The translations under genes and the position numbers were made by a program. A DNA stretch of 64,000 nt. Origin: Chthoniobacteraceae bacterium (GTDB lineage Bacteria; Verrucomicrobiota; Verrucomicrobiia; Chthoniobacterales; Chthoniobacteraceae). The first letter of the stretch is position 1. Every line of letters starts with the position of its first letter. The notes under the pieces were generated by a model, which was not told the origin of the DNA, did no database searches, and was given only the letters and a program-made list of their open reading frames with translations. Shown one piece after another: positions 33,947-51,670 of this stretch. Location: the NCBI GenBank assembly GCA_031409655.1, contig JANNXQ010000170.1, positions 24,499-88,498 on the forward strand, given 5' to 3'.

Positions 33947-33958
33947 TTTATCTTCACG
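33947..33958 (+). promoter_or_regulatory. conserved leader motif TTTATCTTCACG upstream of giant gene 1
   Basis: An identical 12-mer lies at 42690-42701 upstream of giant gene 2. Both are followed by a C-rich run and preceded by a TGTT(A/G)AA element. Confidence 0.4.
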
Positions 33959-33993
33959 TTCCCCGGCCTGCTCCACTTCCCTTCCCGAAACCT

Positions 33994-36900
33994 ATGAGAC
34001 GCTCCTTCCTATTTCCCGCCTTACTCTCTGCGCTTGCGGCCCTGCACGTCCCGGCCCGTGCCGCGCTCGATATTGGGCCCGGTGGTGGTCCCGGCGACGG
34101 CGTACCGGACGTTTGGGCAGCCGTCACCGGCTACACTGGCGACGGTGCATCTTTATCCGCCGACAGCGATGGGGACGGGCAGACCAATGGAGCCGAGGCG
34201 GCTGCGGGGACGAATCCCAACGCTTCGGGAGACGTCATCGCCATCAAGAGCCTGACCCCCGCCGGGGCCAACCTGAAAATCGATTTCCCGGGAATCGGTG
34301 GAAAAAAGTATCAGATGCAAAGCTCGCCGACCCTTTCCCCTGCGAATTTTACCAACGTGCCGCAAGCTGCGGGGACGGTAGTCGCCACCGCAGATGCAAA
34401 TATCCAAGTGACCTTACCAATGGGCGCCGGGTCCAAATACTACCGGGTCGTGGTCTCGGACATCGACACCGACAGTGATGGCCTGACCGATTACGAAGAA
34501 CGCAAAATCGGACTGAATCCTCTCTTGCCAGATATCATCGGCGGTTTGAGCGGTGTCGCCTACGTGAGCGGCCAACTCGCTCTCCCGGATGTGGTGACAG
34601 TTGTCGCCACGGATGCCACGGCGTCGGAGGATGGTTCTGATTTCGGAAGCTTCATGGTGGAGCGGACCCGCAACCTCTTTACCATCGATGTCCCCTACAC
34701 GGTTTCAGGAACCGCTACACCTGGCGTGGATTACCAGTCTCTGGGAGGATCGGTGCATCTGATGTTGGGTGAAAACACCGCTTCATTCAACATTGTGCCA
34801 ACGTCCGAGCCGACGAATGTCGTTGAAAGTGGAGAGTCCGTGACGGTCACCCTTGCAAATCCATCACTGGTCTATTCACTTGGCACGCCTAGTTCGGCAA
34901 CCGTGATCATTGGCGAAACCACCGCCACGAGTGGGACTGGTCTGATGGCTCGTTACTACGACACCGCGAGCGGCAACTACAGCCGACCGGAAAACTTCGG
35001 CACCGTTTCGAGTTATACCTACACAAGGCTAACCGCGGCCACCGGGACGGCAACGATCGCCTACACCGCGACGCCCGCACTTTCTGTGGGACACCAGGTG
35101 AACGTGGCCTTTACAGCCGGCAACCTCAATAACGTGCTCTACAGCCCGCTGCTCTACACCGTGACGGGAGTTACTCCGACGAATTTCACGGTGGCGATTG
35201 CCGGCACCGCCTTGCCGACCAACCAAACTACGGCGTCGTCCTGCGTCATTAGCATCACCAGCTTCCCGCACCCGGCGGTCATCACTCAGGTGGATCCGAC
35301 GGTGAATTTTGATTGGCAGCACGGGACGCCAAATGGCGTGGTGATCCTGCCAAACAATTCTCCGGACAATTACTCCGCGTCTTGGGATGCGTATCTCCAA
35401 CCGACGACTGCTGGGAACTATATTTTCCAGCTTGATGCGGATGACAAAGCGCGGGTGCTGCTCGATACCGGGGCGGGTTTGGTGCAGATCCTCGAGCACG
35501 GTTGGGATGGCCCGGCCACAATTGGAACCTTTAAGCAGAGTGCGCCGATCGCCCTCTCGGTGCCGGGATCTCCATCCGCGCGCTACCACATTCGGGTGGA
35601 GCATGTGGAAACCACGGGTAATGCACGGTGCAGGCTGCAGTGGAGCGCGAACGGTGGCACCACTTTCGCCAATATCGCGCAGGCAAATCAGTTCACTCAT
35701 ACCCAGGCAATAACTTATAGCTATACGCAAGCCACGGGTGATGTGGTCGTCACTCCTACGGGCGGACATCTTTTCGTGGGTGGCGAAGTCGTCAATCTGA
35801 CGATGTCATCAGGAAACCTGTTCCTCCCGATCAGCTACAGTGGACCGTACACGATCACGGCCGTCAGCGGAACCAGCACTTTCACCGTGAATATCACCGG
35901 GACTGGCTTGCCAGCCACTGGCACAGGTTCAGGCTTTCTGGAAAACGCGGCCAGCACCACGACGGGTCTATTCAACCGCACCTATGCAAACACGGCCTTC
36001 ACCAGTCCTCCGGGACGCGTTGGCGTGGACGCTGCAGTTACTACTGGGAATAATGGCATCTGGAATACCGGAACGCCCGACGTGAATCTCATCCGGCCGG
36101 AGACCTTTTCAGTTCGGTGGACCGGTCAGGTGCAACCTCAATTCTCCGAGGAGTACACCCTCGTGGTGGGGGCCGATGATGGTTGCGCCTTGCGGATCAA
36201 CGGGCAGTCGCAAATCCTTAGGACGATTCCTTCCGCGAGCACCAGTGGTAGCACCTACCTCTATGACGCCGGCTCCGGAAATGCGGTGGTCTCCTACCCG
36301 GCTTTGATCGTATCTCCTGGCAGCTTTATCGTAGGGGAGTCCGTGCGGCTTGATCCCAGCAGCGGCAGTCTTTCCCATGCCCCCGCCAGTCCGCCCACCT
36401 ACCGCTTCGATGACGTTACTGGGGACGTCGTTATTAACTACGCGAACCTGACGAACGTGACGCCGGGCGGCTTTGTCGTTGGAGAAACGATCGAACTGGA
36501 CCCTACCAGCGGCAGTCTCAGCGCTCTGGGTCTCCTCCCGTATACCATTACTGCCGCCACGGCGAACACCATCACGGTCAACTCCGGCGGGCTGGGTTTT
36601 AATCCGAGGATGAGCGTCGCGGCCATCTCCGTTGGACCTGCTTGTGAGATCACCACTGTGCAGAATCACGGCTTGAGCGTCGGCAGCGAGCTGAGGATTT
36701 CCTCGGTCGCCACCGGGATTTTCTCACCGGATATCAACAGCCTTTATACGGTGGTCGCGGTTGTCAGTCCGACTAAGTTCACCGTGGCTTCAAACTGCAC
36801 GGTCGCTCCCACTGCTGGCACCGGAGTGGTAATCGTATCGGGCAATATCGCTATCAGCGACAATCGGAATGCGGTCATCACCGCGGCCACGCCCACCACC

Positions 36901-39900
36901 TTCACGGTCAATATGGGCGCGAACAAGTATGCCAATGCCAGCGCGGGCAACGTAAGCATTGATATTGTCAATAAGCCGCTCAAGGACTGGTCTTCGAGCG
37001 CCAACGAACGTTTCGTCCATGTTCCGATGATTGGCGGGGTGCGTTACGACATTCAACTCGATTACTACGAGAGCACGAGTGCCGCGAAGTGCCAGCTCTC
37101 GTGGTATAGCCCCAGCCAGCCCCGGCAGATTATCCCGAGCAATCGGCTCTACCCAACATCCACGCCTGCCTCCCCGCTCGCTCCACCAATTCTCCTCAGT
37201 CCGACTTCGGCGGTGGCCTTGGTTGGCGGTGCGTTCTCCTATGCAGTGGTCGGCAGTAATGGCGCTACGGTCACGGTCAGTGGTAACCCGGCTTGGTTGA
37301 CCTACAGCGGTGGCGTCCTCAGTGGCACGCCGCCTCCTGGAACGGCTGGGCACTACCAGATCGTGGTCACAACTACCGGACCAGCAGGGACTGGGATGTC
37401 GGTCATCGAACTCGACGTTCAGGATACCGGTGGGGTGATTGCGCGGGAATATTGGAATGGTGTCGAGGGAACGACCATCGCGACGATCCCGACCGGTGCG
37501 GTCCCGACGGGCTCCGGGGATCTTTCACAGCTTGCTGCTCCGACCGACTTCGGAGACAACTATGGCGCGCGGATCCGCGGCTATATCACCGCGCCCGTCA
37601 CGGGAAATTACTACTTCTGGATCTCCGCCAGCAACGCTGCGGAACTCTGGATCGCCAATGATGATGAACCGATCAACACCTTCAAGCGCGCGTCGGTGAC
37701 GACCGGTAACACCACTCCACAAACGTGGGTTGGTGAAGCAAATCAGAAGTCCGCCTGGCTGGCTCTGGAAGCCGGTCAAAGATATTATATCGAGATCCTC
37801 CACAAAGCCGGCTCCGGTGCTGGGGACAATCTCGCAGTCGGCTGGCTCAAACCTGGCGAATCCGGCGCCCTCCCGAGTGAAGTGGTGCCTGGCTATGTGC
37901 TCTCGCCGTATGTCGCGCCGTCGTTGCAATCGATCCCCGGGACGCTCTACGTGGCGACCATGCTCTCGCAGAACGGTGCGGCGACCAGCGGTGTGGGCAC
38001 GTCCACCCTTCGCCTGAGTGCGGACGAGACGACGGTCATCATGGGCTACAGTTACAGGGGCCTGACGGGTCCGATCACCTCGCAGCACATTCACACTGAT
38101 CCCTACCTCTTAAAGCCATCGGAGATCGTCTTCGACATCGATACGCCCGAGACGGCGGGGGATGGCTTGATCCTCACGGGTCCTGACGCTGGAAAGTATA
38201 AATGGACGATCAAAGATCGAGGAAGCCTCACCGCCCCGGAGATCCGCGAGATCATCAAGCAGGGCAAAGCCTACATCAATTTGCATACCGCAATGTTTCC
38301 GGCAGGCGAAATACGCGGTAACTATACGTTAGCGAACGGCTCGCGCCTGTTCACCCCGCCGCCGGCGCCTCCGGCTCTCGCCGACGATCATGCGACCAAC
38401 AACGGAGCCTCCCGCTTCCTCACGCAGGCGACGTTTGGGCCAAATCCTGCCGATATCGCGGCGCTGAAAGCGATGGCCAGTTACGATGCCTGGATCAATG
38501 ACCAGTTCACGAGGCCAGTGAGCTACACCTTGCCCGAAGTCATCAGGACCGAAAATGCGAGCGCCCAAGGTGCCGCGTTCGATGAAACGCTGGCTTTCAA
38601 TGCGTGGTGGAAGAGTGCCGTTTCTGCCCCGGACCAGCTCCGGCAGCGAATCGCTTATGCATTAAGCCAGATCCACGTCGTATCAGCGCAGGGACCACTC
38701 GACAACCGTGCAGAAGCCTTGGCCTATTACTACGACCATCTCGTCAATCACGCTTTCGGCAACTTCCGCGACCTCCTCCAAGCGACGACGCTCACGCCGG
38801 CCATGGGGCGTTACCTTGACATGAAGGAAAACGACAAGCCTGACCTAACGGTGGGGCGCATTCCGAACGAAAACTATGCTCGTGAGATCCTGCAGTTGTT
38901 CGACCTCGGACTTTTCCGGCTGTGGCCAGATGGCACGTTGATGCTGAATTCGAAGGACGAATTGATCCCCACCTACACCCAGCGTGAGATCGTCGGTTTT
39001 GCCCACCTCTTCACTGGCTGGGACGACGGATACGATGGAGCCTTCCGGACGACGCTCGGTGCAGCGACCAATTACACCCGCCCGATGCGGGAGGTGCCCG
39101 CCCGCCATTTCACCGGACCGAAGCGCGTGCTGAACAATGAAGTCCTGCCCGGACTTCAGCAGTTGGGCGGTCAGCCGCTCGACCCTTACGCCACTCATAA
39201 CGCGACGCAATTCAACGATCCATCCTACCAGGCACTTCCTGGGTTGGAACTCGCCGTTTCCCATCAGCAGCTTTTCGAGCACCCGAATGTTGGTCCCTTC
39301 ATCTGTCGCCAGCTCATTCAGAGGATGGTGATGAGCAATCCTTCCCGCGACTACTTGTACCGGGTCGTCCAAAAATTCAACAATAACGGCGCGGGGGTGC
39401 GCGGCGATCTGAAAGCAGTCATCAAGGCGATCCTCCTCGACTACGAAGCCCGCAGTAGCTCGGAAACAACGAAGCCGATCTATGGAAAGCAGCGGGAACC
39501 GGTGCTCCGCGTCGCCGCAGCGGGACGGGCTTTCCGGCAGGCCGCTTGGACCGGAACCTACACGCAGAGCGCCTCACCGAGCAGCACGTCACGGACGATT
39601 ACGGTCAGCACCTCGACGGCCCACAAACTAGTCACCGGTAACAATGTGTTTCTCGACTTTTCCGACACTACGGGAGACGTCGCCAAACCCGCGCCGTGGA
39701 TCGGTACTTACTCGGCAACCGTCACGGGAAACAATACGTTCACGGTTCAGGCGAACGGATGGGCCACCGGAACTTATAACATCCCGGCGAATTCCACTGT
39801 GTGTACCGTAAGTATGGGCAGCCATTGGCTCGAAGCGACTGAACAGGCGTACTTCGACTTTACCAGCGGACCCGCGGACGGCCTCGCCGGTTTCGATAAC

Positions 39901-40944
39901 ACCGTGCATCCGGCGGTCACGTCGAACGCCAGTAATACTGTTGCCGGTACGACTTTCACGATCACCGTTCCGACGTCAGCTAGCGCGCGGTCCGGCAACG
40001 TGATGATCCCGCGATTCGCACCGGGCAGCTACACCACCTCGGCTTCGGGTCTCGCGGCACCGCGAGACCGCCGTGTGACGATGGATACCAATTTCGACCA
40101 TCACCTCAAAGTCGGTGATCAGGTGCAAATTAACTTCTTCCAAGGTAATCCCCTGCCTGTTGACATGGTAGCTACCGTAGAATCCGTCGTGGACATGAAC
40201 ACTTGGACTTTCCTCGCGCCATCGCTCGGAACGAATCTCGGAACCAACCAAGGGAACAACAATGTCTATCAGTTCCCGCTGCTCGCTCAACCGTTGACTC
40301 GGAGTGGGACCGTGGGTTCACGCCCGAGCACGTTCAACATGGGCAACACTGAAGGGGATATGGACCAGGCTCCGTTGAACTCTCCGACCGTGTTTAACTT
40401 CTATCTGCCGGACTACAAGTTCCCTGGAGCGCTTGCCTCGCAGGGCATCACGACTCCCGAGTTCCAGGAAACGGCTGAGACTTCGGTCATCCGCCAGGCG
40501 AACTTCTTAGAGCGCGGCATCTACGCACTGGGAAACACCAATGGCGTAAGCAGCTTCAAGAACGGCACCAATGCATTGGTCATGGATTTGAGCCCGTGGA
40601 TGGCGAACGCGGTCGGTACCGTTTCGCCAGGTCTGGAGCTTGGAGCCGGCACCAGCACCACGCGGCCTTGGACGCACGATCAAAACCTCAGCGTTCTCAT
40701 CGACCGTTTCAGTACGGTGCTTCTTGGTGCGGCTTTGCCCGCGGCTGTGAAGACCCAAATCACAACCTTCGTCCAGACACGCACAAATATGGGTTCTGCC
40801 TATAATCAATTCACTAATCCTTACACCAATATTCCCTACAATAACTCGGGCACAACGACTGCGACCGATCCCGAGAAGACTAATCGCATCCGGGCAATTC
40901 TGCACCTCATCCTCACCTCCCCCGACTTCACCATCCAGCGCTAA
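33994..40944 (+). CDS. giant secreted multidomain protein 1: Ca-binding motifs / Calx-beta / 3x PA14-like / Ig-like / CHRD / C-terminal DUF1800
   Basis: ORF 33898..40944 trimmed to ATG 33994, where a Sec-type signal peptide starts (MRRSFLFPALLSALAALHVPARA|AL). 2316 aa. Domain order recognised by eye; see the domain features. Confidence 0.9.
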   Translation: MRRSFLFPALLSALAALHVPARAALDIGPGGGPGDGVPDVWAAVTGYTGDGASLSADSDGDGQTNGAEAAAGTNPNASGDVIAIKSLTPAGANLKIDFPGIGGKKYQMQSSPTLSPANFTNVPQAAGTVVATADANIQVTLPMGAGSKYYRVVVSDIDTDSDGLTDYEERKIGLNPLLPDIIGGLSGVAYVSGQLALPDVVTVVATDATASEDGSDFGSFMVERTRNLFTIDVPYTVSGTATPGVDYQSLGGSVHLMLGENTASFNIVPTSEPTNVVESGESVTVTLANPSLVYSLGTPSSATVIIGETTATSGTGLMARYYDTASGNYSRPENFGTVSSYTYTRLTAATGTATIAYTATPALSVGHQVNVAFTAGNLNNVLYSPLLYTVTGVTPTNFTVAIAGTALPTNQTTASSCVISITSFPHPAVITQVDPTVNFDWQHGTPNGVVILPNNSPDNYSASWDAYLQPTTAGNYIFQLDADDKARVLLDTGAGLVQILEHGWDGPATIGTFKQSAPIALSVPGSPSARYHIRVEHVETTGNARCRLQWSANGGTTFANIAQANQFTHTQAITYSYTQATGDVVVTPTGGHLFVGGEVVNLTMSSGNLFLPISYSGPYTITAVSGTSTFTVNITGTGLPATGTGSGFLENAASTTTGLFNRTYANTAFTSPPGRVGVDAAVTTGNNGIWNTGTPDVNLIRPETFSVRWTGQVQPQFSEEYTLVVGADDGCALRINGQSQILRTIPSASTSGSTYLYDAGSGNAVVSYPALIVSPGSFIVGESVRLDPSSGSLSHAPASPPTYRFDDVTGDVVINYANLTNVTPGGFVVGETIELDPTSGSLSALGLLPYTITAATANTITVNSGGLGFNPRMSVAAISVGPACEITTVQNHGLSVGSELRISSVATGIFSPDINSLYTVVAVVSPTKFTVASNCTVAPTAGTGVVIVSGNIAISDNRNAVITAATPTTFTVNMGANKYANASAGNVSIDIVNKPLKDWSSSANERFVHVPMIGGVRYDIQLDYYESTSAAKCQLSWYSPSQPRQIIPSNRLYPTSTPASPLAPPILLSPTSAVALVGGAFSYAVVGSNGATVTVSGNPAWLTYSGGVLSGTPPPGTAGHYQIVVTTTGPAGTGMSVIELDVQDTGGVIAREYWNGVEGTTIATIPTGAVPTGSGDLSQLAAPTDFGDNYGARIRGYITAPVTGNYYFWISASNAAELWIANDDEPINTFKRASVTTGNTTPQTWVGEANQKSAWLALEAGQRYYIEILHKAGSGAGDNLAVGWLKPGESGALPSEVVPGYVLSPYVAPSLQSIPGTLYVATMLSQNGAATSGVGTSTLRLSADETTVIMGYSYRGLTGPITSQHIHTDPYLLKPSEIVFDIDTPETAGDGLILTGPDAGKYKWTIKDRGSLTAPEIREIIKQGKAYINLHTAMFPAGEIRGNYTLANGSRLFTPPPAPPALADDHATNNGASRFLTQATFGPNPADIAALKAMASYDAWINDQFTRPVSYTLPEVIRTENASAQGAAFDETLAFNAWWKSAVSAPDQLRQRIAYALSQIHVVSAQGPLDNRAEALAYYYDHLVNHAFGNFRDLLQATTLTPAMGRYLDMKENDKPDLTVGRIPNENYAREILQLFDLGLFRLWPDGTLMLNSKDELIPTYTQREIVGFAHLFTGWDDGYDGAFRTTLGAATNYTRPMREVPARHFTGPKRVLNNEVLPGLQQLGGQPLDPYATHNATQFNDPSYQALPGLELAVSHQQLFEHPNVGPFICRQLIQRMVMSNPSRDYLYRVVQKFNNNGAGVRGDLKAVIKAILLDYEARSSSETTKPIYGKQREPVLRVAAAGRAFRQAAWTGTYTQSASPSSTSRTITVSTSTAHKLVTGNNVFLDFSDTTGDVAKPAPWIGTYSATVTGNNTFTVQANGWATGTYNIPANSTVCTVSMGSHWLEATEQAYFDFTSGPADGLAGFDNTVHPAVTSNASNTVAGTTFTITVPTSASARSGNVMIPRFAPGSYTTSASGLAAPRDRRVTMDTNFDHHLKVGDQVQINFFQGNPLPVDMVATVESVVDMNTWTFLAPSLGTNLGTNQGNNNVYQFPLLAQPLTRSGTVGSRPSTFNMGNTEGDMDQAPLNSPTVFNFYLPDYKFPGALASQGITTPEFQETAETSVIRQANFLERGIYALGNTNGVSSFKNGTNALVMDLSPWMANAVGTVSPGLELGAGTSTTRPWTHDQNLSVLIDRFSTVLLGAALPAAVKTQITTFVQTRTNMGSAYNQFTNPYTNIPYNNSGTTTATDPEKTNRIRAILHLILTSPDFTIQR
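34588..34863 (+). other. Calx-beta domain (giant protein 1)
   Basis: VVTVVATDATASEDGSDFGSFMVERT...YTVSGTATPGVDYQSLGGSVHLMLGENTASFNIVP...ESVTVTL is the canonical Calx-beta pattern. Confidence 0.75.
34933..35658 (+). other. PA14-like domain 1, interrupted near its N-terminus by a ~65-aa module
   Basis: GLMARYYD...[insert]...VDPTVNFDW...DNYSASWDAYLQPTTAGNYIFQLDADDKARVLLD...YHIRVEHVETTGNARCRLQWS. Confidence 0.7.
35965..37116 (+). other. PA14-like domain 2, split by a ~247-aa insertion (about 36226-36966)
   Basis: The N-part is GLFNRTYANTAF...FSVRWTGQVQPQFSEEYTLVVGADDGCALRINGQ. The C-part is ERFVHVPMIGGVRYDIQLDYYESTSAAKCQLSWYSPS. Confidence 0.7.
37435..37860 (+). other. PA14/GLEYA-like domain 3
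   Basis: VIAREYWNGVEG...DNYGARIRGYITAPVTGNYYFWISASNAAELWIANDD...GQRYYIEILHKAGSGAGDNLAVGWLKPGE. Confidence 0.65.
37939..38331 (+). other. CHRD domain
   Basis: LYVATMLSQNGAATSGVGTSTLRLSADETTVIMGYSYRGLTGPITSQHIH...GKAYINLHTAMFPAGEIRGN is the CHRD pattern (AHIH ... YVNVHT..P.GEIRG). Confidence 0.7.
38404..40941 (+). other. DUF1800 domain carrying a ~258-aa internal insertion (about 39547-40320)
   Basis: ASRFLTQATFGP, LRQRIAYALSQIHVVS, FGNFRDLL..TLTPAMGRYLD, PNENYAREILQLFDLGL, YTQREIVGFAHLFTGW, HPNVGPFICRQLIQRMV and terminal LILTSPDFTIQR. Confidence 0.75.
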
Positions 40945-40949
40945 GCCCT

Positions 40950-42443
40950 ATGAGCTCCGAACAAGATCCCAAAGTCTCCACACGCCGCGATTTCATCCGC
41001 CAGGCTTCGTGCGCTGCCGTCGGCACGTGGGCGATCACCAGCACGATCCGCGACCTGCGGCTCATCAATGCCGCCGTCGCGCAGACCGGCCTGACAGGAT
41101 ACAAGGCCCTGGTCTGTCTTTTCCTGTCGGGCGGCAATGACGCGAACAACTGGATCGTTCCGACCGATACCGCAACTTACAATGAGTATGCGGGATTGCG
41201 CGGAATCCTGGCGATCCCGAAGACATCGCTCCGGCCGCTTTGGAGTAACGCAGCCGGAACGACGCCCTATACCGACACCGACGGGCATACTCACGGTTTC
41301 CATCCCGCTTGCACCGAACTCGAGACGCTCTTCAAGGAAGATAAGCTCGCGGTGATTTTCAATGTCGGGACATTGGTTCGTCCAACCAGCCGCGAGCAAT
41401 ACCTCTCAGCCAATCCCTTTTACCGGCCACCTCAACTCTTCTCCCATAGCGATCAAGTGACCCAATGGCAGACGTCCATTCCAGACCAACCACCCGCCAC
41501 CGGATGGGGAGGGCGTTGCGCGGATCTATTGGACGCGACCGCAAACCCGACAGGAGCCATTTCTATGTCGGTCTCGCTGAACGGAGCGAATACTTTTGAG
41601 GTTGGGAATATCATCTCGCAATACCACGTCTCCAGTGCTGGGGCCGTGACTTTATCGAACCTAAGTTCGGCCAAGATTGCGACGATGAGGGCGATCTTTA
41701 ATCCGACGATCCCGATTTCAACCGCCAGCAACGCCGTGAACCTTCAGCGCGCGGCCTACGCGGAGGTATTGGATCGTGCGGTGGAAACCGGGAATTTGCT
41801 GAATACGAGCATTGAGGGCACGGCCATGGCAACCGACACTCCTCTAGGAACCTGGGTGTGGACTGCGCCGTTCCCGAATACTGGCTTGGGCAACCAAATG
41901 AAGATGATCGCGCGTTTGATTGCCGCCCGCGGCCCGACCGGATTCAACATGAAGCGCCAGATCTTTTTCTGCTCGGTGGGTGGTTACGACACCCACACCA
42001 ACCAAATCACCTTCAATAACAACGGAACAACCGATCCGACCACGGGCACCCACGCCAATCTCCTCGGTGAGGTGAGCGACTGCGTCTTCGCTTTTCAGCG
42101 CGCGATGGAGCAACTCGGTGTTTCCGATCAAGTCACAACCTTCACCGCGAGCGACTTTGCCCGCACCTTCCCAACGAACTCGCAGGGAAGCGATCACGGT
42201 TGGGGTAGCCACCACATCATGGTGGGCGGGGCCGTTAAAGGCGGCCAGACCTATGGTCATCTTCCTACCCTTGTCATCAATGGACCAACCGACACTGGCT
42301 TGGGTCGCTGGATACCCACGACCTCTGTCGACCAGCACGCCGCCACGCTCGCGCGCTGGTTTGGAGTTGACTCATCAAATCTCGCGTCGATCTTCCCAAA
42401 CTTGAGCCGTTTCCCCACATCGAATCTCGGGTTCATGCTTTGA
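40950..42443 (+). CDS. Tat-exported DUF1501 protein (alkaline-phosphatase/sulfatase-superfamily fold), partner of giant protein 1
   Basis: Twin-arginine motif TRRDFIR. Motifs FLSGGNDANN, LFSHSDQ, VGGYDTHTNQ and GSDHGWGSHH. The ATG is 5 nt after the giant-gene stop. Confidence 0.85.
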   Translation: MSSEQDPKVSTRRDFIRQASCAAVGTWAITSTIRDLRLINAAVAQTGLTGYKALVCLFLSGGNDANNWIVPTDTATYNEYAGLRGILAIPKTSLRPLWSNAAGTTPYTDTDGHTHGFHPACTELETLFKEDKLAVIFNVGTLVRPTSREQYLSANPFYRPPQLFSHSDQVTQWQTSIPDQPPATGWGGRCADLLDATANPTGAISMSVSLNGANTFEVGNIISQYHVSSAGAVTLSNLSSAKIATMRAIFNPTIPISTASNAVNLQRAAYAEVLDRAVETGNLLNTSIEGTAMATDTPLGTWVWTAPFPNTGLGNQMKMIARLIAARGPTGFNMKRQIFFCSVGGYDTHTNQITFNNNGTTDPTTGTHANLLGEVSDCVFAFQRAMEQLGVSDQVTTFTASDFARTFPTNSQGSDHGWGSHHIMVGGAVKGGQTYGHLPTLVINGPTDTGLGRWIPTTSVDQHAATLARWFGVDSSNLASIFPNLSRFPTSNLGFML

Positions 42444-42701: not shown

Positions 42702-42761
42702 CAAAGTCCCCCCTTGGGAGATCGGACCGTGAATCGCCCTTTCCGAAGTTACCCCAGTTCC

Positions 42762-45700
42762 ATGAGCCGATTCACTCGCTTCCTTGCCGCACTTGCGGCT
42801 TCTTTTGCGTTAATTCCAACCGGCCGGGCCGCTCTGGACGTATCGCCAGCCGACGGAATCCCCGATATCTGGGCGCTCGTCCAGGGTGTCAGCGTGCTCA
42901 CCCCAGCAGGAGATGACGACGGCGATGGGCAGACGAATGTGGCCGAGGCTGCCGCCGGTACCAATCCGAAGAACGCCACCGAAGTTCTCAAGATCAAGAG
43001 CATCACGAAAAGCGGGAGCAATGTGACGCTGATCTTCCCGGCGATCTTATCGAAGAAATATGAGGTGCAAGGGGCGACAACTCTCACGACGACTCCCCCA
43101 ACGAATTTCGTGACGATCGGTTCCCCATTTGTTCCCGGGGCCGACGGTGATTACACGGCTGTCGTTGCTGCCGGTAGCGCCAAATTCTTCAGGGTTCTGG
43201 TCTCCGATTTGGATACCGATAACGATGGTCTTTCAAATTACGAGGAGCGGATGATCGGCCTGAATCCGCTCCTCGCTGATAGCGATGGCGACACGGTCAG
43301 CGACCTGAATTATGTTACCGCGCAGCTTGCCCTGGCAGATACGCTCTCCATCCGCGCCTTGGAGTCGATCGCCTCGGAGGACGGTCCGACTTCCGGCGAA
43401 TTCGAGGTTTACCGCAGTCGTAGTCTCTTCACCATCAACGTGCCTTACGACGTTGGTGGCACGGCTACGGTCTCCACGGATTACGCAGCATTGGCGGGTT
43501 CGGTTACGCTCGCCCGCACCTTCACGTCAGCGAAGTTTAACGTAAATCCAAACCCCGATAGCATCGTGGAAGGAAGTGAGTCCGTGCAGGTCACGCTGAC
43601 GCCGCCGCCGGGGGGCCTCAGCAGCCAGTACCTGCTGGGTAGCCCAAGTGTCGCAACGGTTATTATTACCGACAAGACGACGCCCGTTGGGACGGGCCTC
43701 ACCGCGCGGTACTATGACCATGCCAACACCATCTACGCGCACGCCGCCAACTTTGGTGACGCTGCGAGCTACGCTTACACCCGGTCCGGCACGACGCCGA
43801 ACTTCACCGGCTCTGTCGTCATTACGCCGACCGGATTGACGCCGGACCGGCTGACCACGGTCCTGGCGGCGGTCACGGTGAACGGCCAGGTGAAGCTCTC
43901 TTTCAACGGAGGCAACCTGAATACTGCCGTTTACAACCACCAGAACTACACTGTGACGGCGAAGAACGCGACGAGCTTCACGTGCACGGTGCCTCCTGGC
44001 GCATCTCTCCCGGGAAGCAGCAGCAGCACCTGCAATTTCAGTATCCAACCCCTCCACCCAGCGGTGATCGACCGCATCGATACGGTGGTCAACAATGACT
44101 GGGCCTACGGTACACCGAATGGAGTGACGTTGGCGACTCACGGCGCTCCTCGCCTGGCCAATTTCCCGGACGATTACTCCGCGTCGTTTGAGACTTATCT
44201 GGTGCCAACTACGACAGGTTCTTACCGTTTCCAGTTCGATGCGGATGACAAAGCCAGGGTCTTGCTCGATACCGGGAGCGGCTTGGTGGAGATCCTCGAG
44301 CACGGCTGGGACGGCGCCACCACGCCGGAGACCATCGGTGTTTTCAAGGTGAGCGCCGCGTCCTATACCCTCACCGCAGGTCAGCGCTACAAGATGCGCG
44401 TGGAGCATGTCGAGACGACCGGCGATGCGCGTTGCCGTCTGCAATGGAGCCGGGACTTGGGCGGTTTTGTCAACATCCCTCAGGCCGAGCAGATCACGCA
44501 AACGCAGGCGGCCACTTATGTGTTTAACAAGCTGACGACGACTACCGGCACGGCCGTCATCACCCTCACGTCGCATGGCTTGAACAATGGCGACCCTGTC
44601 ACGCTCGCGTTCTCCACAAGCAACCTCTTCACGCCGGCAAGCTATAGTGGCAATTACACCGTCGCCAATGCCACGACGAATACCTTCGAGGTGGCGATTG
44701 CGGATCCCGTTGCGGTGCCGAACACGGTCGCGGCGGGCCAGGGTTGTTTTCTCGAAAATCGGCCCCTGAGCACCACGACCGGCGTGTTCAATAGGACTTA
44801 CGCGGGCACCGCATTTGCCGGATTCCCGCTGCGAGTTGGTGTCGATGGCGCGGTCACGACCGGAAACAACGGCATTTGGGGTTCAGGCACGCCTGATGTG
44901 GGCCTTGTTTCCCCCAGCACGTACATCAATCCCGACACCTTCTCGATTCGCTGGACGGGCCAGGTGCAGCCACAGTTCACGGAAGAGTACACCTTCGTGG
45001 TTCATGCGGATGAAGGCAGCACCCTCAAGATCAACGGCCAGACGCAGGAGATGCAGGCGGCTCCGTCCTCGATCGTGGGCGGCAGCACCTACCTCTATGA
45101 CAACGCGACCGGCAATACGGTCATCAACTACTCTGGGAATGCGGTCAAGCCGGGCGGGTTTATCGTTGGTGAAACGATCAGGCTTGATCCCAGCACCGGC
45201 AACCTGACCCATCCCAATGGCAGCACCTACAGCTACGACTCCGTCACGGGCCTGGCCGTGATTGACTTCTCCAATCTGACATCTGTCCTGCCGAACGGCT
45301 TCGGCGTCGGACGGATTGTGGAAATCGACCCGACTGGGGGCACCGCTTCGGCCTTGGCGAATGCGCGCTACACGATTACCGCGGCGACTGCGACCACCTT
45401 CACGGTGAGCTTTGGCGTTGGCGCGTTTGCGCCGCAGGCTGTGGCACCCACGGCCACCATCAATGTGACTGACAACAGGAATGCAGTCATCACGGCAGTT
45501 CACGCCACCGGCACCGGCACGTACGCCTACAGTTCCACCACGGGCGATGCTGTCATCGACTACACGGGCCTGGGCATTCCCAATAATACCGTCACCGTCG
45601 GCCAGAGCGTGGCGCTCGACCCTAGCAGCGGCAATCTGAGTACCTTGCCCAACGCATTTGCGACGGTCACCGCTGCGACGGCGACTACGTTCACCGTGAA

Positions 45701-48700
45701 CTACGGCACCAGTTTCACGACCGGCAACGGCAACGTCGTTATCATTGCGCCATCCAACGGTTTGGTCGATCCGGCCGTGACTACGGCTTTCACCGTCAAT
45801 TTTGAACCGGCCAAGTATGCCAACGCTAGCATTGGCACTATGAACGTGGAGGTCATCAATAAGCCGCTCAAAGAGTGGTCCTCGATGGGCAATGAGCGTT
45901 ACGTGCGCATCCCTGTCGTCGGCGGCACGCGGTATGACATCCAGCTCGATACGTATGAGAATACGAGCTATGCGCGGGCCATTCTTTATTGGTACAGCCC
46001 CAGCCAGACGAAACAGGTCATCCCGACGGAGCGTCTTTATCCCACCTCAGTGCCACAGGCTCCGGTGGCACACGCTGGTGCGACAGAGGCTGCCGCAGTC
46101 GTCGGCTCGGCCTTCAACTATTTGGTGGGCGGAACCAATGGCAGCTCGGTCACCGTCTCCGGGCTCCCGGCCGGGCTGACCTACAACGCCGGGGTCATCA
46201 GTGGCACGGCGACAACCGCAGGCGATTATCAAGTCCTGCTCACGATCACGAACGGTGTGGGTACGAGCACCTCGGTTCTCAATCTGCATGTGGAAGCGCC
46301 GGCCGGCTCCATCGTGCGCGAACATTGGAACGGCGTCGCGGGAACGGCAGTGGCGAATCTTTCCACGGAAATTGCGGCTGGCACACCGCCGACGGGCACG
46401 ACGAACCTTAGCTCTTTGGAAGGACCGACCGACTTCGGCGACAATTATGGCGCTCGCATTCGCGGTTACATCACCGCTCCGGTCACCGGCAATTACTACT
46501 TCTGGATCGCGGCCAGCAATGCCGCCGAGCTTTGGATTTCCAATGATGACGAGCCGGTCAGCGCGCTGAAGCGGGCTTCGGTGGCGACTGGTAACACGAC
46601 GCCTCGTACGTGGAGCGGCGAAGTGAAACAGAAATCGCCGTGGCTCGCTCTGGAGGCCGGGCAAAGGTATTACGTCGAAATCCTGCACAAGGCCGGAACA
46701 GGCGCAGGCGACAACCTCGCGGTCGGCTGGCGCAAGCCGGGCGAGACCGGCACCGCGCCGAGCGAAGTCGTGCCTGGGAATGTGCTCTCTCCGTATGTGG
46801 CACCGGCACCGGGCTCGACCCCTGGCACCCTCTACGTAGCCACGATGCTGGCGCAGAACGGCGCGGTGACCAAGGGCGTGGGAGTGGCCACTTTCCGCCT
46901 GAGCGACGATGACAATGTGGCCTACATCAAGTTTGACCGGCAGGGATTCCTGAACCCGCCTTATAATGGCCTGACGGGAATAATGACGGATTGGCACGTG
47001 CATAACGATCCGTATCTCACCCGCCCTTCGAGCATTATGTTCGATCCGAATGCCCCGCCCGCCAACAGTGGCTTGCAGCCGGACGGCAGCTTTAAGTGGA
47101 CGATACCCAACCTGGTTGGAACGATTCCCAAGGCCGAAGTCGTGGAACTGATCAAGCAGGGTAAGGCTTACATCAATATCCATACTACGGCTTATCTGAA
47201 TGGAGAAATCCGCGGCAACTTCACCTTGGCCAGCGGCACCCGCACCTTCACCCCGCCGCCGGCGCCGCCGGCGTGGACCGACGACAGCAGCACTAATGAC
47301 GGAGCCTCCCGCTTCCTTGCGCAGGCTTCCTTTGGGGCTAACATCGCCGACATCACCGCTTTGAAGGCACTGGCAGCGACTGGCGCTGTTCCCACTGCGG
47401 GGATCCCGGCCAGCCGCTACGACAAGTGGATCGACAATCAGTTCCTCGTTGGCGCTACCCAGCATCTGCCGGAAGTTCTGGCGCGTGAGTATGGGAATGT
47501 GTTCGGCCCTTTTGATGTCTCGTTGAGTTTCAACGCTTGGTGGAAGGCATCGATGACCGCCCCGGATCAGCTCCGGCAGCGCGTGGCTTTCGCCTTGAGT
47601 GAGATTCACGTGGTCTCCGGTCAGGGGCCGCTGGAGGATAATGCCCGCGCCATTTCGGACTTTTACGACACGCTGGCTACCAATGCCTTCGGCAACTTCC
47701 GGGACATCGTGGTCGGCACCACTCTCACTCCGGGAATGGGTCGCTATCTGGATATGCTGCGCAACGACAAGCCCGATATCTCGGTCGGACGCAGCCCCAA
47801 TGAAAACTACGCCCGCGAGATCAAACAGCTTTTCACCATCGGACTCTACGAGATGTGGCCGGATGGCAGCTTGAAGCTCACCTCCAAGGATGCACCGATC
47901 GATACCTACACCCAGCGGGAGATTGTCGGCCTTTCGCATGTCTTCACCGGATGGGACTACGCGTACGACGGTGCTTACCGCACGGCGTTCGGTGCTACGG
48001 CGGACTGGACCCGGCCGATGCGCGAGATTCCCGCCCGGCACTTCACGGGTCAGAAGCGCGTCTTGAACAACGAGGTGCTGCCGGGGCTTTCTACGGTGGG
48101 TGGCCAGCCGTTGGATCCGAATGCGACCCATATCACCACGCATTTCAACGACCCCGCGTATCAGGCGCTCGCCGCGCAGGAACTCACCGCCGCGCATGAC
48201 ATGCTCTTCAATCATCCGAACGTCGGCCCGTTTATCTGCCGGCAGCTCATTCAGCGTCTGGTGACGGCCAACCCGTCGCGCGACTATCTCTATCGTGTAG
48301 TCCAGAAGTTCAATGACAATGGGTCGGGCGTGCGCGGGGACATGAAGGCAGTGATCAAAGCCATTCTGCTGGATTACGAAGCGCGGAGCACCGGTCAATT
48401 CGCGATCCCGGCTTACGGCAAACAGCGTGAACCGATCATGCGCGTCGCCCAAGCGGCCCGTGCGCTCCGGCCGAACAACGTGACCGGAACGTATACTCAG
48501 AATAACTCGAACCTGATCACCATCGCCACGAGCACTTCGCATCTGCTTACCGATGGGGAAAGCGTCTTCCTGGAGTTCGCCGATGCCACGGCGGCCGGAG
48601 CGCAACCCGCGCCGACCACTGGCTCGTACATTGTGAACGTCATCAATGCGACTTCCTACACCATCGACGCCCCGGGCTGGATGGTCGGATCCTACAATCA

Positions 48701-50177
48701 GTCGGCGGGCTCCAATGTGATGACCATCACGATGTCTGGGCATTATTTGCCCGGGAATAATGCCAACGTGATCCCGTCGGTCCAGGTGCTGCCAACTGCA
48801 AACAAGGGACAAGCCTATTTCGATTTCACCAGTGGCACAGCCAATGGCCTGGCTGGTTTCGACCAAACGGTCCGATCGGTCGCCACTTCCACGTCGTATG
48901 ATATCCCCAGCGCGGTAGGTAATACGGCAACGGCGCCCAACATCAATGGGAATGCCTCCGGGACGACCTTCACGATCACCGCGCCGGATACCACGGCGCG
49001 CAGTGGAAACCTGAGGGTCTCGCGCTTCCCCAGTAGCTACCAGAGCACGGGCCGGGCTGGCGTCATCACGATCGACACTTCATATGGTGGGTCCGGTACG
49101 TTCGGACAGCAGGCAGATCATGGACTGTCCGTTGGGGACGCCATGTTCCTCAATTTCTACGGATCGCGGGATACGACTTCGTTTAACGAAACCTCCACGG
49201 AGAACGATCTCGTCTATACCGTTGCGAGCGTTCCCGATGCGAATACCTTCACGGTCGCGGCACGGGATGCAGCCAATGCGGCGATGAACAGTGGCAACGA
49301 AGTCATCGTGTTCCCGCTCGAGGCGCAGCCTTTGGTTCGCAACGGGACAATCTCCGCGCGTCCCTCCACCTTTGCGATGAGCAACACGGACGGGGACCTT
49401 CAGCAGACGCCACTGAACTCGACGACGGTGTTCAACTTCTTCCTGCCCGACTACAAGTACGCCGGGACGCTGGCTTCGCAGGGCATCACCACTCCGGAGT
49501 TCCAGATCACGTCAGAGACCACGGCCATGCGTCAGGCAAACTTCCTCTTCAATGGTGTTTTCAATCCTTCAGGGAGCACCACCGGGGTCAGTAGCTTTAA
49601 GTCTGGAACTCACGCGTTGGTCATGGACCTGAGCCGTTGGATGAACGGCAACGCGGCAAACTTGGGCCTCGGCGTCCCAACCAGCACCTTGGTGCCGTGG
49701 ACGCAGAATCAAAACCTCGCTGAACTTATCAACCAGCTCAGTACGCTGCTGATGGCCGGGCGCCTGCCGCAACCGGCCAAGGATATCATCAAGAACTTCA
49801 TCGCCACGCCGATCACCTCCATCGGCACCGGCAATCCATGCTTGGTGACGACGACTGTTGCGCACGGGTTGAAGACTGGTGATGTCGTACTTGTCAGCGG
49901 CGTCGCGGACGGAACGTTTGGTGGTGTCGCAAACAGCTTGAATAACACGAACACCACGCGGGCCGTGACGGTGACGGGACCGACCGACGGAACCTCGACA
50001 ACGTTCACGATTCCGTTGAGTTGCACGATTGCCCCGACTGGTCTGACCAACGCCCATGTCTCGGTGATTCCCTACAATCAGGGTGACACGACTCCTAACG
50101 TCACCGACAAGCTCGGTCGCTTGCGCACCATCATCCATCTTATCCTCACCAGCCCCGATTACACCATCCAGCGATAG
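42762..50177 (+). CDS. giant secreted multidomain protein 2 (paralogue of protein 1, same domain order)
   Basis: ORF 42714..50177 (TTG) trimmed to ATG 42762, where the signal peptide starts (MSRFTRFLAALAASFALIPTGRA|AL). 2471 aa and collinear with protein 1. Confidence 0.9.
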   Translation: MSRFTRFLAALAASFALIPTGRAALDVSPADGIPDIWALVQGVSVLTPAGDDDGDGQTNVAEAAAGTNPKNATEVLKIKSITKSGSNVTLIFPAILSKKYEVQGATTLTTTPPTNFVTIGSPFVPGADGDYTAVVAAGSAKFFRVLVSDLDTDNDGLSNYEERMIGLNPLLADSDGDTVSDLNYVTAQLALADTLSIRALESIASEDGPTSGEFEVYRSRSLFTINVPYDVGGTATVSTDYAALAGSVTLARTFTSAKFNVNPNPDSIVEGSESVQVTLTPPPGGLSSQYLLGSPSVATVIITDKTTPVGTGLTARYYDHANTIYAHAANFGDAASYAYTRSGTTPNFTGSVVITPTGLTPDRLTTVLAAVTVNGQVKLSFNGGNLNTAVYNHQNYTVTAKNATSFTCTVPPGASLPGSSSSTCNFSIQPLHPAVIDRIDTVVNNDWAYGTPNGVTLATHGAPRLANFPDDYSASFETYLVPTTTGSYRFQFDADDKARVLLDTGSGLVEILEHGWDGATTPETIGVFKVSAASYTLTAGQRYKMRVEHVETTGDARCRLQWSRDLGGFVNIPQAEQITQTQAATYVFNKLTTTTGTAVITLTSHGLNNGDPVTLAFSTSNLFTPASYSGNYTVANATTNTFEVAIADPVAVPNTVAAGQGCFLENRPLSTTTGVFNRTYAGTAFAGFPLRVGVDGAVTTGNNGIWGSGTPDVGLVSPSTYINPDTFSIRWTGQVQPQFTEEYTFVVHADEGSTLKINGQTQEMQAAPSSIVGGSTYLYDNATGNTVINYSGNAVKPGGFIVGETIRLDPSTGNLTHPNGSTYSYDSVTGLAVIDFSNLTSVLPNGFGVGRIVEIDPTGGTASALANARYTITAATATTFTVSFGVGAFAPQAVAPTATINVTDNRNAVITAVHATGTGTYAYSSTTGDAVIDYTGLGIPNNTVTVGQSVALDPSSGNLSTLPNAFATVTAATATTFTVNYGTSFTTGNGNVVIIAPSNGLVDPAVTTAFTVNFEPAKYANASIGTMNVEVINKPLKEWSSMGNERYVRIPVVGGTRYDIQLDTYENTSYARAILYWYSPSQTKQVIPTERLYPTSVPQAPVAHAGATEAAAVVGSAFNYLVGGTNGSSVTVSGLPAGLTYNAGVISGTATTAGDYQVLLTITNGVGTSTSVLNLHVEAPAGSIVREHWNGVAGTAVANLSTEIAAGTPPTGTTNLSSLEGPTDFGDNYGARIRGYITAPVTGNYYFWIAASNAAELWISNDDEPVSALKRASVATGNTTPRTWSGEVKQKSPWLALEAGQRYYVEILHKAGTGAGDNLAVGWRKPGETGTAPSEVVPGNVLSPYVAPAPGSTPGTLYVATMLAQNGAVTKGVGVATFRLSDDDNVAYIKFDRQGFLNPPYNGLTGIMTDWHVHNDPYLTRPSSIMFDPNAPPANSGLQPDGSFKWTIPNLVGTIPKAEVVELIKQGKAYINIHTTAYLNGEIRGNFTLASGTRTFTPPPAPPAWTDDSSTNDGASRFLAQASFGANIADITALKALAATGAVPTAGIPASRYDKWIDNQFLVGATQHLPEVLAREYGNVFGPFDVSLSFNAWWKASMTAPDQLRQRVAFALSEIHVVSGQGPLEDNARAISDFYDTLATNAFGNFRDIVVGTTLTPGMGRYLDMLRNDKPDISVGRSPNENYAREIKQLFTIGLYEMWPDGSLKLTSKDAPIDTYTQREIVGLSHVFTGWDYAYDGAYRTAFGATADWTRPMREIPARHFTGQKRVLNNEVLPGLSTVGGQPLDPNATHITTHFNDPAYQALAAQELTAAHDMLFNHPNVGPFICRQLIQRLVTANPSRDYLYRVVQKFNDNGSGVRGDMKAVIKAILLDYEARSTGQFAIPAYGKQREPIMRVAQAARALRPNNVTGTYTQNNSNLITIATSTSHLLTDGESVFLEFADATAAGAQPAPTTGSYIVNVINATSYTIDAPGWMVGSYNQSAGSNVMTITMSGHYLPGNNANVIPSVQVLPTANKGQAYFDFTSGTANGLAGFDQTVRSVATSTSYDIPSAVGNTATAPNINGNASGTTFTITAPDTTARSGNLRVSRFPSSYQSTGRAGVITIDTSYGGSGTFGQQADHGLSVGDAMFLNFYGSRDTTSFNETSTENDLVYTVASVPDANTFTVAARDAANAAMNSGNEVIVFPLEAQPLVRNGTISARPSTFAMSNTDGDLQQTPLNSTTVFNFFLPDYKYAGTLASQGITTPEFQITSETTAMRQANFLFNGVFNPSGSTTGVSSFKSGTHALVMDLSRWMNGNAANLGLGVPTSTLVPWTQNQNLAELINQLSTLLMAGRLPQPAKDIIKNFIATPITSIGTGNPCLVTTTVAHGLKTGDVVLVSGVADGTFGGVANSLNNTNTTRAVTVTGPTDGTSTTFTIPLSCTIAPTGLTNAHVSVIPYNQGDTTPNVTDKLGRLRTIIHLILTSPDYTIQR
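43341..43605 (+). other. Calx-beta domain (giant protein 2)
   Basis: LSIRALESIASEDGPTSGEFEVYRS...YDVGGTATVSTDYAALAGSVTLARTFTSAKFNVNP...ESVQVTL. Confidence 0.75.
43689..44466 (+). other. PA14-like domain 1 with nested module
   Basis: GLTARYYDHAN...[insert]...IDTVVNNDW...DDYSASFETYLVPTTTGSYRFQFDADDKARVLLD...YKMRVEHVETTGDARCRLQWS. Confidence 0.7.
44781..46004 (+). other. PA14-like domain 2 split by a ~265-aa insertion (about 45059-45852)
   Basis: The N-part is GVFNRTYAGTAF...FSIRWTGQVQPQFTEEYTFVVHADEGSTLKINGQ. The C-part is ERYVRIPVVGGTRYDIQLDTYENTSYARAILYWYSPS. Confidence 0.7.
46308..46745 (+). other. PA14/GLEYA-like domain 3
   Basis: SIVREHWNGVAG...DNYGARIRGYITAPVTGNYYFWIAASNAAELWISNDD...GQRYYVEILHKAGTGAGDNLAVGWRKPGE. 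Confidence 0.65.
46824..47228 (+). other. CHRD domain
   Basis: LYVATMLAQNGAVTKGVGVATFRLSDDDNVAYIKF...TDWHVHNDP...GKAYINIHTTAYLNGEIRGN. Confidence 0.65.
47301..50174 (+). other. DUF1800 domain with a ~297-aa internal insertion (about 48478-49370) and an extra C-terminal module (49839-50024)
   Basis: ASRFLAQASFGA, LRQRVAFALSEIHVVS, FGNFRDIV..TLTPGMGRYLD, PNENYAREIKQLFTIGL, YTQREIVGLSHVFTGW, HPNVGPFICRQLIQRLV and terminal LILTSPDYTIQR. Confidence 0.75.
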
Positions 50178-50182: not shown

Positions 50183-51670
50183 ATGAGAACCGACCAAGAT
50201 CCCAAACTTACGAATCGCAGAGATTTCATCCGGCAGGCCTCCTGTGCCGCAGTCGGCTCGCTGGCGCTCAAGAGCACCATCCGGGATCTGCGCCTGATCA
50301 ATTCCGCGCTCGCCGTGCAGCCCGCATTGACTGGCTACAAAGCACTGGTCTGCGTGTTTCTCAGTGGGGGAAATGACTCGAACAACTGGATCGTCCCGAC
50401 CGATCCTACGACGTTCGCGGATTACACCTCCATCCGCGGCAATCTCGCGCTCGCGCAGCCGTCTTTGCTCCCCTTGTGGGCGAACGCGGCTGGCACCATA
50501 CCCTACACGGACTCTGATGGTCACACGTATGGCTTCCATCCCAGTTGTCCGGAACTCCAGACCCTCTTTAAGGAAGACAAGCTGGCCGTAGTCCTCAATG
50601 TGGGAACCATCGTGCGCCCGACCACTCGCACACAGTATCTGTCCGGCCTCCAAGCGTATCGGCCGCCACAGCTTTTTTCGCACAGTGATCAGGTCACGCA
50701 GTGGCAAACCTCGATCCCCGACGTTCCCCCGACCACGGGGTGGGGCGGTCGTGTCGCCGATCTCGTCAATGCCGCAGCGTCGAATCCGTCGAATAGCATC
50801 TCCATGTCCGTCTCCGTCAGCGGGGCGAACACCTTCGAGATCGGAAACCTCATCTCACAATACCAAGTCTCCACCACCGGGGCAGTGGTCCTGACGGGAG
50901 ACACGCTGATGACGAGCGGCGGTCCACGTTCGCGCGCTTTCCAGGCGATCGCCCGTCTTTCCGACATCAATTTGCAGCGGACGGCAGTGGCCGATGTGAC
51001 CAAGAATGCGATCGCAAAGGGCGATCTGCTCAACGCCAACATTTCTGACACAGCGCTCGATACGTATTGGAATGTTCCATTCCCCAATACGACCCTTGGC
51101 AATGAATTGAAGATGGTCGCCCGCCTGATCCAGGCGCGCGGATCGACGAAATTCAACATGAAGCGTCAGATCTTCTTCACGTCGGTCGGCGGGTACGACA
51201 CGCATACTTCGCAGGTCTCGGTGAATGGACAAGACCAGCCGGAGAGCCCGCAGGGCGCACATTACCGGCTCCTCGATGAGGTGAGCTCCTGTATGTTCGC
51301 GTTCCAGCGCGCGATGGAACAACTTGGCGAGTCGAACAATGTCACGGCATTCACGGCCAGCGATTTTGCCCGCACCCTTCCGACCAACAGCCAGGGCAGC
51401 GATCATGGCTGGGGCGGTCATCACATCATCGTGGGTGGCGCAGGCGGTGCCACAGGCGCAGTGAAGGGCGGGAAGACCTACGGCCAACTGCCCGTGTTGG
51501 CGATCAATGGCCCGAATGACACCGGCCTGGGCCGCTGGATCCCGACCATTGCGGTCGATCAACATGCGGCCACGCTGGCGAAATGGTTCGGCGTGGATTC
51601 AACGGAGATGGATGCCATTTTCCCGAATCTAAATCGTTTCTCGACTCGAGATCTGCTCTTCATGGCCTGA
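50183..51670 (+). CDS. Tat-exported DUF1501 protein, partner of giant protein 2
   Basis: Twin-arginine motif NRRDFIR. Motifs FLSGGNDSNN, LFSHSDQ, VGGYDTHTSQ and GSDHGWGGHH. The ATG is 5 nt after the giant-gene stop. Confidence 0.85.
   Translation: MRTDQDPKLTNRRDFIRQASCAAVGSLALKSTIRDLRLINSALAVQPALTGYKALVCVFLSGGNDSNNWIVPTDPTTFADYTSIRGNLALAQPSLLPLWANAAGTIPYTDSDGHTYGFHPSCPELQTLFKEDKLAVVLNVGTIVRPTTRTQYLSGLQAYRPPQLFSHSDQVTQWQTSIPDVPPTTGWGGRVADLVNAAASNPSNSISMSVSVSGANTFEIGNLISQYQVSTTGAVVLTGDTLMTSGGPRSRAFQAIARLSDINLQRTAVADVTKNAIAKGDLLNANISDTALDTYWNVPFPNTTLGNELKMVARLIQARGSTKFNMKRQIFFTSVGGYDTHTSQVSVNGQDQPESPQGAHYRLLDEVSSCMFAFQRAMEQLGESNNVTAFTASDFARTLPTNSQGSDHGWGGHHIIVGGAGGATGAVKGGKTYGQLPVLAINGPNDTGLGRWIPTIAVDQHAATLAKWFGVDSTEMDAIFPNLNRFSTRDLLFMA

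Follow-up and report, generated by a model that had tools for sequence, protein, structure and literature searches.

Two adjacent DUF1800–DUF1501 cassettes in a Chthoniobacteraceae genome are anciently diverged paralogues, both very probably maintained by purifying selection

Architecture of the two cassettes

The 64,000-nucleotide stretch of contig JANNXQ010000170.1 from a Chthoniobacteraceae bacterium of the phylum Verrucomicrobiota (GCA_031409655.1), hereafter referred to as the window, contains two gene cassettes, A1-B1 and A2-B2 (Table 1). Each of them would encode a giant exported protein followed, 5 nt downstream, by the gene of a DUF1501 protein predicted to use twin-arginine translocation (Tat) for its export; a small gene, C, follows the second cassette and is lacking from the first. 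The two large proteins share one domain order, in which a TSP3 repeat, a Calx-beta domain, three PA14/GLEYA domains and a CHRD domain precede a C-terminal DUF1800 domain. DUF1800 (PF08811) is recognized with 243.1 bits in A1 and 204.7 bits in A2 (Pfam cut-off 26.1), and DUF1501 (PF07394) with 90.5 bits in B1 and 71.7 bits in B2 (Pfam cut-off 27); A1 further scores 112 bits for PA14 and 46 bits for CHRD, and NCBIfam holds no model for the A, B or C proteins. The twin-arginine leader, T/N-R-R-D-F-I-R-Q, occupies residues 11-18 of both B1 and B2 and reads TRRDFIRQ in B1. Identity amounts to 57% between A1 and A2 (2267 residues aligned) and to 69% between B1 and B2. In view of the matching trees of the A and B genes (see below), the duplicated unit would be the whole cassette rather than a single gene.

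The long open reading frames (ORFs) at 33898-40944 and 42714-50177 each run uninterrupted, over 2348 and 2487 codons respectively, and lack internal stops. A first-pass annotation of this DNA had found no disabling mutation in either copy, and indeed both frames are open end to end. The true starts are likely at 33994 and 42762, from which signal-peptide-like N-termini result; the 2316-residue product beginning at 33994 corresponds to the database entry P0001 and opens with MRRSF followed by a hydrophobic, signal-like stretch.

Within the third PA14-like domain (PA14-3), the same annotation had aligned 45 codons of the two copies and counted 22 differing codons, 19 of them synonymous and three with a replacement, and our recount is identical. 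Both stretches are in frame (offset 0 from the ORF starts at 33898 and 42714), and 23 of their 135 nucleotides differ, corresponding to 83% nucleotide identity. The replacements (A1/A2) are TCC/GCG at codon 29 (S/A), GCC/TCC at codon 39 (A/S) and ATC/GTC at codon 45 (I/V). Among the remaining 42 identical residues, 19 are specified by different codons, compared with 23.1 expected at complete codon randomization, and the NG86 method gives a proportion of synonymous differences (pS) of 0.66, a synonymous divergence (dS) of about 1.6 and a non-synonymous divergence (dN) of 0.029. In A1 the stretch lies inside matches to Pfam PA14 (41.8 bits, cut-off 24) and to GLEYA (29.7 bits, cut-off 26.2), both obtained with the fragment 37441-38334, of which the PA14 match covers residues 29-142; this PA14 match is the third of the protein and is located directly upstream of CHRD.

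Table 1. Features of the two cassettes in the window (first eight rows) and relatives of gene C, given with coordinates in their own loci.
Feature	Coordinates	Strand	Description
A1	33994..40944	+	2316-residue giant secreted protein (predicted); ORF open from 33898
Stretch in copy 1	37540..37674	+	45 codons within PA14-like domain 3
PA14/GLEYA domain 3 of A1	37525..37866	+	ORF residues ~1210-1323; Pfam PA14 match
B1	40950..42443	+	497-residue DUF1501 protein; partner of A1; begins 5 nt past A1 stop
A2	42762..50177	+	2471-residue A1 paralogue, same domain order; ORF open from 42714
Stretch in copy 2	46425..46559	+	45 codons
B2	50183..51670	+	495-residue DUF1501 partner of A2, 5 nt downstream of A2
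Gene C	51817..52422	+	201-residue protein after B2
Gene C relative	L029:6566-6859		
Gene C relative	L033:3841-4113		
Gene C relative	L034:10258-10563		
Gene C relative	L036:9056-9325		
Gene C relative	L037:10373-10645		
Gene C relative	L046:8984-9622		
Gene C relative	L047:18957-19580		

Divergence and constraint in the two lineages

Comparison of A1 with A2 over 2267 codons (NG86) yields pS 0.69, dS of about 1.9, dN 0.36 and a dN/dS ratio (omega) of at most 0.2. The pairwise counting methods (NG86, LWL85) were taken as bounds, and multi-sequence GY94 models were added. A full codon alignment with windowed dN/dS, which the first-pass annotation had proposed as a check, gives omega values of 0.09-0.27 in eight segments by NG86 and LWL85, so that no segment exceeds 0.27 or approaches 1. 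Likewise, none of the 60-codon windows comes near omega 1 where dS is estimable, about one third of the windows having pS above 0.75 and no computable ratio. Pairwise maximum likelihood dS ranges from 2 to 29 across the segments, which is uninterpretable as a distance and amounts to saturation.

The extent of this saturation was estimated against an expectation for full randomization, computed as independent draws from each gene's codon usage. Different codons are found at 53.3% of the residues identical in A1 and A2 (n=1301), where 59.6% would be expected, and 61.9% of the four-fold sites differ, where 68.2% would be expected. As both values are close to their expectation, synonymous sites are about 90% randomized. 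Synonymous change had been described as saturated, a wording that captures the heavy divergence and is slightly too strong for the gene as a whole. The split of the two types predates the genus (see below). Synonymous sites have become almost fully randomized since then, and the A protein has kept 57% identity over its length and about 80-85% in PA14-3.

Constraint is unevenly distributed along the A protein. In 60-codon windows, the lowest dN of the gene (0.07-0.11, with residue identities of 0.78-0.85) falls on the PA14-3 windows over A1 residues 1213-1332, matched solely by the DUF1800 window at residues 1791-1850 (dN 0.10). The inserted modules reach dN values of 0.65-1.04 at residues 885-1006 and of about 0.5-0.7 at residues 1881-2140. 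The contrast that had been drawn between a strongly conserved PA14-3 (dN 0.07-0.12) and divergent inserts is therefore real, but across the family the DUF1800 core is no less conserved, or even more so: among 12 close family members the majority residue has a share of 0.78-0.91 in the DUF1800 core versus 0.76-0.81 in PA14-3. Between A2 and its orthologue in a genome of the same genus, G001 (contig C169), constraint is strongest in the DUF1800 core (omega 0.02-0.04), with PA14-3 at 0.10-0.14. PA14-3 is hence the best-conserved block between A1 and A2 but not uniquely conserved across the family.

A pairwise ratio averages over the two lineages and cannot alone exclude that one copy is decaying or relaxed, with the function carried by the other; both lineages were therefore tested separately. 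Tajima's relative-rate test, run with six members of the family as outgroups, assigns 89-110 changes to A1 alone and 95-112 to A2 alone (chi-square never above 1.8), so that the rates are equal and neither copy is faster. For the shared C-terminal part, aligned by codon over 1150-1250 codons, GY94+F3X4 models fitted per clade put omega at 0.058 in the A1 clade, at 0.070 in the A2 clade and at 0.067 in a third one, and a joint fit to 15 sequences puts it at 0.092; the N-terminal halves give 0.036 and 0.028, rough values only in view of their very long branches. The comparison of A2 with its G001:C169 orthologue is unsaturated, with dS 0.25, dN 0.030 and omega 0.12 (245 synonymous and 101 non-synonymous differences), and omega stays at or below 0.29 in all 150-codon windows; residue identity is 94% in the global codon alignment and 96% over the tree columns. 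For B2 and its G001 orthologue dS is 0.38 and omega 0.076. Among 5.8 billion proteins searched, A1 has no relative above 70% identity, and its terminal branch of 0.18-0.19 is on par with the 0.18-0.21 of its sisters. Omega is thus about 0.06-0.12 per lineage, and the earlier proposal of purifying selection on both copies is upheld by the equal relative rates, the clade estimates and the A2 orthologue comparison alike.

We consider it very probable that the two 45-codon stretches are parts of two paralogous cassettes that diverged long ago and are both kept functional by purifying selection. The adjacency of two units with the same orientation and architecture, and a PA14-3 that is far more similar than the remaining parts, might suggest instead that the similarity is recent and stems from a young duplication, ongoing gene conversion of PA14-3 or an assembly artefact. 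This is already refuted by the synonymous divergence: the stretch itself, at only 83% nucleotide identity, carries 19 silent differences, the proteins are only 57% identical, and PA14-3, with pS 0.57-0.72, resembles the gene as a whole (0.69). Over the whole PA14-3 block 65 identical residues have different codons versus 81.7 expected, and by our own estimate its synonymous sites do not diverge significantly less than those of the gene at large. Runs of identical nucleotides between A1 and A2 reach 20 nt at most, within the 95th percentile of 23 obtained with shuffled codon columns, which rules out gene conversion, recent duplication and assembly artefact; a recent origin of the similarity is therefore next to impossible, and the annotation's view of an old event rather than an artefact of assembly holds. 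Decay or relaxation of one copy would find some support in the missing gene C of cassette 1, in the lack of any A1 relative closer than 70% and in an A2-type cassette of the related genome G002 that is split over at least six frames, so that decay may occur in the family. Nevertheless, both frames, each longer than 2300 codons, have stayed open despite a dS of about 2, the relative rates are equal, both clade omegas are low and the A1 terminal branch resembles those of its sisters, making this a very unlikely explanation.

Several points weigh against two paralogues under maintained selection. dS has reached saturation in the A1-A2 comparison as well as inside the A1 clade, so the omegas there are bounds or rough maximum likelihood estimates. 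With the best relative of A1 at 70% identity, a recent relaxation confined to its terminal branch would escape tests based on dS, and its recent history is therefore judged only by its frame, open over 2316 codons, and by the symmetry of the branch lengths. The source is a metagenome-assembled genome (MAG) with 5.3% contamination, in which other paralogues could come from co-binned strains; A1 and A2 are located on one contig. Finally, the functional part of the interpretation is drawn from domain names.

Subfamily structure and history of the locus

The 6.85-Mb MAG (94.9% complete) encodes 11 DUF1800 proteins and about 43 DUF1501 proteins. Five of the 11 DUF1800 genes are closely related, namely A1, A2 and one each on contigs C4, C127 and C294; the latter three show identities of about 60-62% each across the 1300 C-terminal residues and are as near to A1 as A2 is. 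In a maximum likelihood tree of 25 rows, A1 groups with the A-type gene of G001:C520 and with P0002 from another MAG, and A2 forms a clade with G001:C169, G013:C30, P0111, another gene from the contig of P0002 and a fragmented G002 gene, both groupings with full support. G013, a member of the A2 clade, is the genome of another genus. After addition of 119 database relatives, the smallest clade holding both A1 and A2 comprises 103 of the 141 rows. Since A1 and A2 lie in separate clades and the smallest clade joining them is so large, their split is older than the genus. They are not each other's closest relatives, as simple tandem sister duplicates would be; of the duplication assumed in the first-pass annotation, paralogy and great age stand, and in place of sister duplicates we find members of distinct old subfamilies in a multi-copy family.

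The tree of the DUF1501 partners contains the same clades as the A tree, B1 grouping with the partners of A1-type genes. As the B tree mirrors the A tree, the cassette has diverged as a unit and the A and B proteins co-evolve. The roughly 11 DUF1501 genes of this genome adjacent to a DUF1800 gene score 50-119 bits against the Pfam model versus 240-530 bits for the remaining ones, which marks the DUF1800-linked partners as a distinct DUF1501 subgroup. The partner of the C127 paralogue (L042, G000:C127 14395-15492) groups with distant-clade G012 partners and not with its own A clade; this would be compatible with a possible partner swap, the sequence being cut by the contig end.

Database searches returned at least 1200 relatives with PA14, CHRD and DUF1800, and 80 loci were kept in named MAGs labelled Verrucomicrobiaceae, Prosthecobacter, Chthoniobacteraceae, Pedosphaera and Limisphaerales. 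The cassette architecture is common in Verrucomicrobiota. In keeping with a check suggested by the first-pass annotation, both cassette types also occur intact in other genomes. On one G002 contig (L034, G002:C18:5000-24999, ~2287-9835), an A2-type gene and its DUF1501 partner are readable only with at least six frame switches, and the cassette following them there is intact; the broken cassette is either a decayed copy or the product of local sequencing errors.

Synteny of the window with G001 (C385; L040, L044) and G003 (C532; L128) ends exactly upstream of A1, at 33385-33994, the break falling between a regulator-like gene on the minus strand (32905-33633) and A1. Past the break G001 and G003 have a shared gene, which in this genome is located on contig C148. 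A1-B1 (33994-42443) is saturated against its nearest counterpart in the genus, G001:C520 (L028), with pS 0.73, and thus more diverged than the flanking genes, for which dS is 0.54-1.15; what comes after the A1-type cassette in G001 is a cassette of the C294 type rather than of the A2 type, and the G001:C520 counterpart is probably not a simple orthologue of A1-B1.

The 3' two-thirds of A2 together with B2 (45548-51679) are 88-99% identical in nucleotide sequence to G001:C169 (L029, L039). Set against the dS of 0.25 for A2 (0.07 to 0.69 within the gene) and 0.38 for B2, six upstream and two downstream flanking genes have dS 0.54-1.15 or more. Identity steps down in the intergenic stretch that separates the B2 stop from gene C, and gene C is itself saturated (pS 0.74). 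This pattern looks like recent recombination or transfer of the A2-B2 cassette between species, with a chimeric MAG contig as the alternative. Since A1-B1 is saturated and A2-B2 has a low dS relative to the flanks, the cassettes do not follow the species history.

The neighbourhood of the two cassettes could accordingly have arisen in another way than by duplication at this locus, A1-B1 and A2-B2-C being two old subfamilies juxtaposed later by rearrangement or transfer. We rate this somewhat below an even chance. It would account for A1 and A2 not being sisters, for the different neighbour of the A1-type cassette in G001, for the synteny break exactly upstream of A1 with the following genes on other contigs here, and for the disparate divergence from G001 of A1-B1 (pS 0.73), the flanks (dS 0.54-1.15) and A2-B2 (dS 0.25-0.38). 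In JANPHH01 (L046), A1-type and A2-type cassettes are likewise adjacent and intact, which makes them neighbours in two genomes and speaks against later juxtaposition, but there the order is reversed, the A2-type cassette with gene C coming first, as independent joining would allow. Against it also stands that tandem arrays are common and typical of the family and include true local duplicates, the sister copies in G012:C304 being supported at 100/99, and that contig breaks of MAGs hide much synteny. Were the juxtaposition secondary, A1 and A2 would still be paralogues under selection, and their tandem arrangement would say nothing on the duplication event.

Two selectively maintained paralogous cassettes are the usual outcome when paralogues are retained within a known, uncharacterized, large and widespread gene family. 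Beyond two further members of the cassette family, the present analysis contributes measurements of their selective regime and an outline of the subfamilies. These results mark the tandem pair as real biology rather than an assembly error or a dying copy.

Relation to known systems and possible function

A conserved two-gene operon of unknown role, in which DUF1800 and DUF1501 genes are transferred together, is widespread, is found beside bacterial chitin synthase genes and occurs as tandem pairs in Agrobacterium vitis (PMC5122149). The window cassettes contain both families in the same order, with DUF1501 immediately downstream and bearing the twin-arginine leader, and both systems feature tandem pairs; transfer as a unit was described for the published operon. 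In contrast to that operon, the large proteins of the window are 2300-2500 residues long and have DUF1800 as their C-terminal third, with about 1500 residues of TSP3, Calx-beta, PA14 and CHRD ahead of it and a beta-rich insert inside the domain. A further difference is that the partner DUF1501 proteins score low against the Pfam model, at 70-119 bits, compared with 300-530 bits for other DUF1501 genes in the genome, and form their own subgroup. No essential difference separates the window cassettes from the lectin-decorated DUF1800/DUF1501 cassettes of Verrucomicrobiota, which have the same architecture and the same small third gene and are labelled in public records only as 'DUF1800 family protein'.

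The PSCyt/PSD (DUF1549/DUF1553) proteins are paired with DUF1501 and present in multiple copies per genome. These giant proteins of Planctomycetes and Verrucomicrobia may carry carbohydrate-binding modules including PA14 (PMC5615132; the word DUF1501 is absent from its main text). Like them, the A protein is large and multidomain, is predicted to be exported and contains PA14, but the large partner in the window has DUF1800 in place of the cytochrome-like PSCyt/PSD domains. With scores above both the Pfam PA14 and GLEYA cut-offs, the 45-codon stretch also resembles lectin domains of the PA14/GLEYA type in fungal adhesins and bacterial glycosidases, a likeness at the level of sequence.

The papers found to mention DUF1800 give no function for it. 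An AlphaFold2 model of A1 residues 1480-2348 (pLDDT 72.7, pTM 0.75) is helical, with a beta-rich insert at about 1880-2145, and retrieves no PDB fold at E ≤0.001; hyaluronate lyases, which occupy the top rows of that search, were rejected as a fold for this part of A1, their TM-score of about 0.1 and root-mean-square deviation of 28 being meaningless. B1 alone gave only a chance match to solved structures, and a profile of 13 DUF1501 partner proteins matched no PDB sequence at E up to 1. The partners contain the invariant motifs GGND, SHSDQ, GGYDTH and GSDHGW. These resemble metal-site motifs of the alkaline-phosphatase/sulfatase superfamily, of which the DUF1501 partner is a putative member according to Pfam's classification.

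Judging from the domain families, the A protein may be a calcium-dependent glycan- or polymer-binding protein of the surface or periplasm, whose conserved PA14-3/CHRD/DUF1800 core would work with the exported, hydrolase-like DUF1501 partner. The variable inserts and the N-terminal half, which differ between the paralogues, would fit different substrates. PA14-3, the DUF1800 core and the DUF1501 partner, being conserved, are candidates for the seat of a shared activity, and the inserted modules and N-terminal half, free to vary, for the seat of specificity. Verrucomicrobia keep several diverged versions of this large and costly cassette under strong selection (omega about 0.06-0.12), which argues that the DUF1800/DUF1501 system does something important and that the paralogues are not redundant. 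Going one step further, the cassettes might be exchangeable specificity modules, with a constant PA14-3/CHRD/DUF1800 core and a co-evolving DUF1501 protein, diversifying inserts and N-terminal half, and A-B cassettes that move between species by recombination. We put this forward as a speculative and, at present, rather doubtful extension; movement between species is hinted at by A2-B2 being three times less diverged from G001 than the flanking genes.

Gene C has no family match in NCBIfam or Pfam. Its C-terminal part of about 90 residues is conserved, and the gene recurs directly after A2-type cassettes and also after more distant ones at seven other loci (Table 1), so that the unit often comprises three genes. 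Its relatives, at 50-75% identity, are found on G001:C169, G013:C30, G002:C18, G016:C10 and G012:C304 and at L046 and L047. Downstream of the array, at 52456-54021, lies an aldehyde dehydrogenase gene whose best NCBIfam matches are StyD/BADH-like models, below their equivalog cut-offs, and which is 89% identical to its G001 orthologue.

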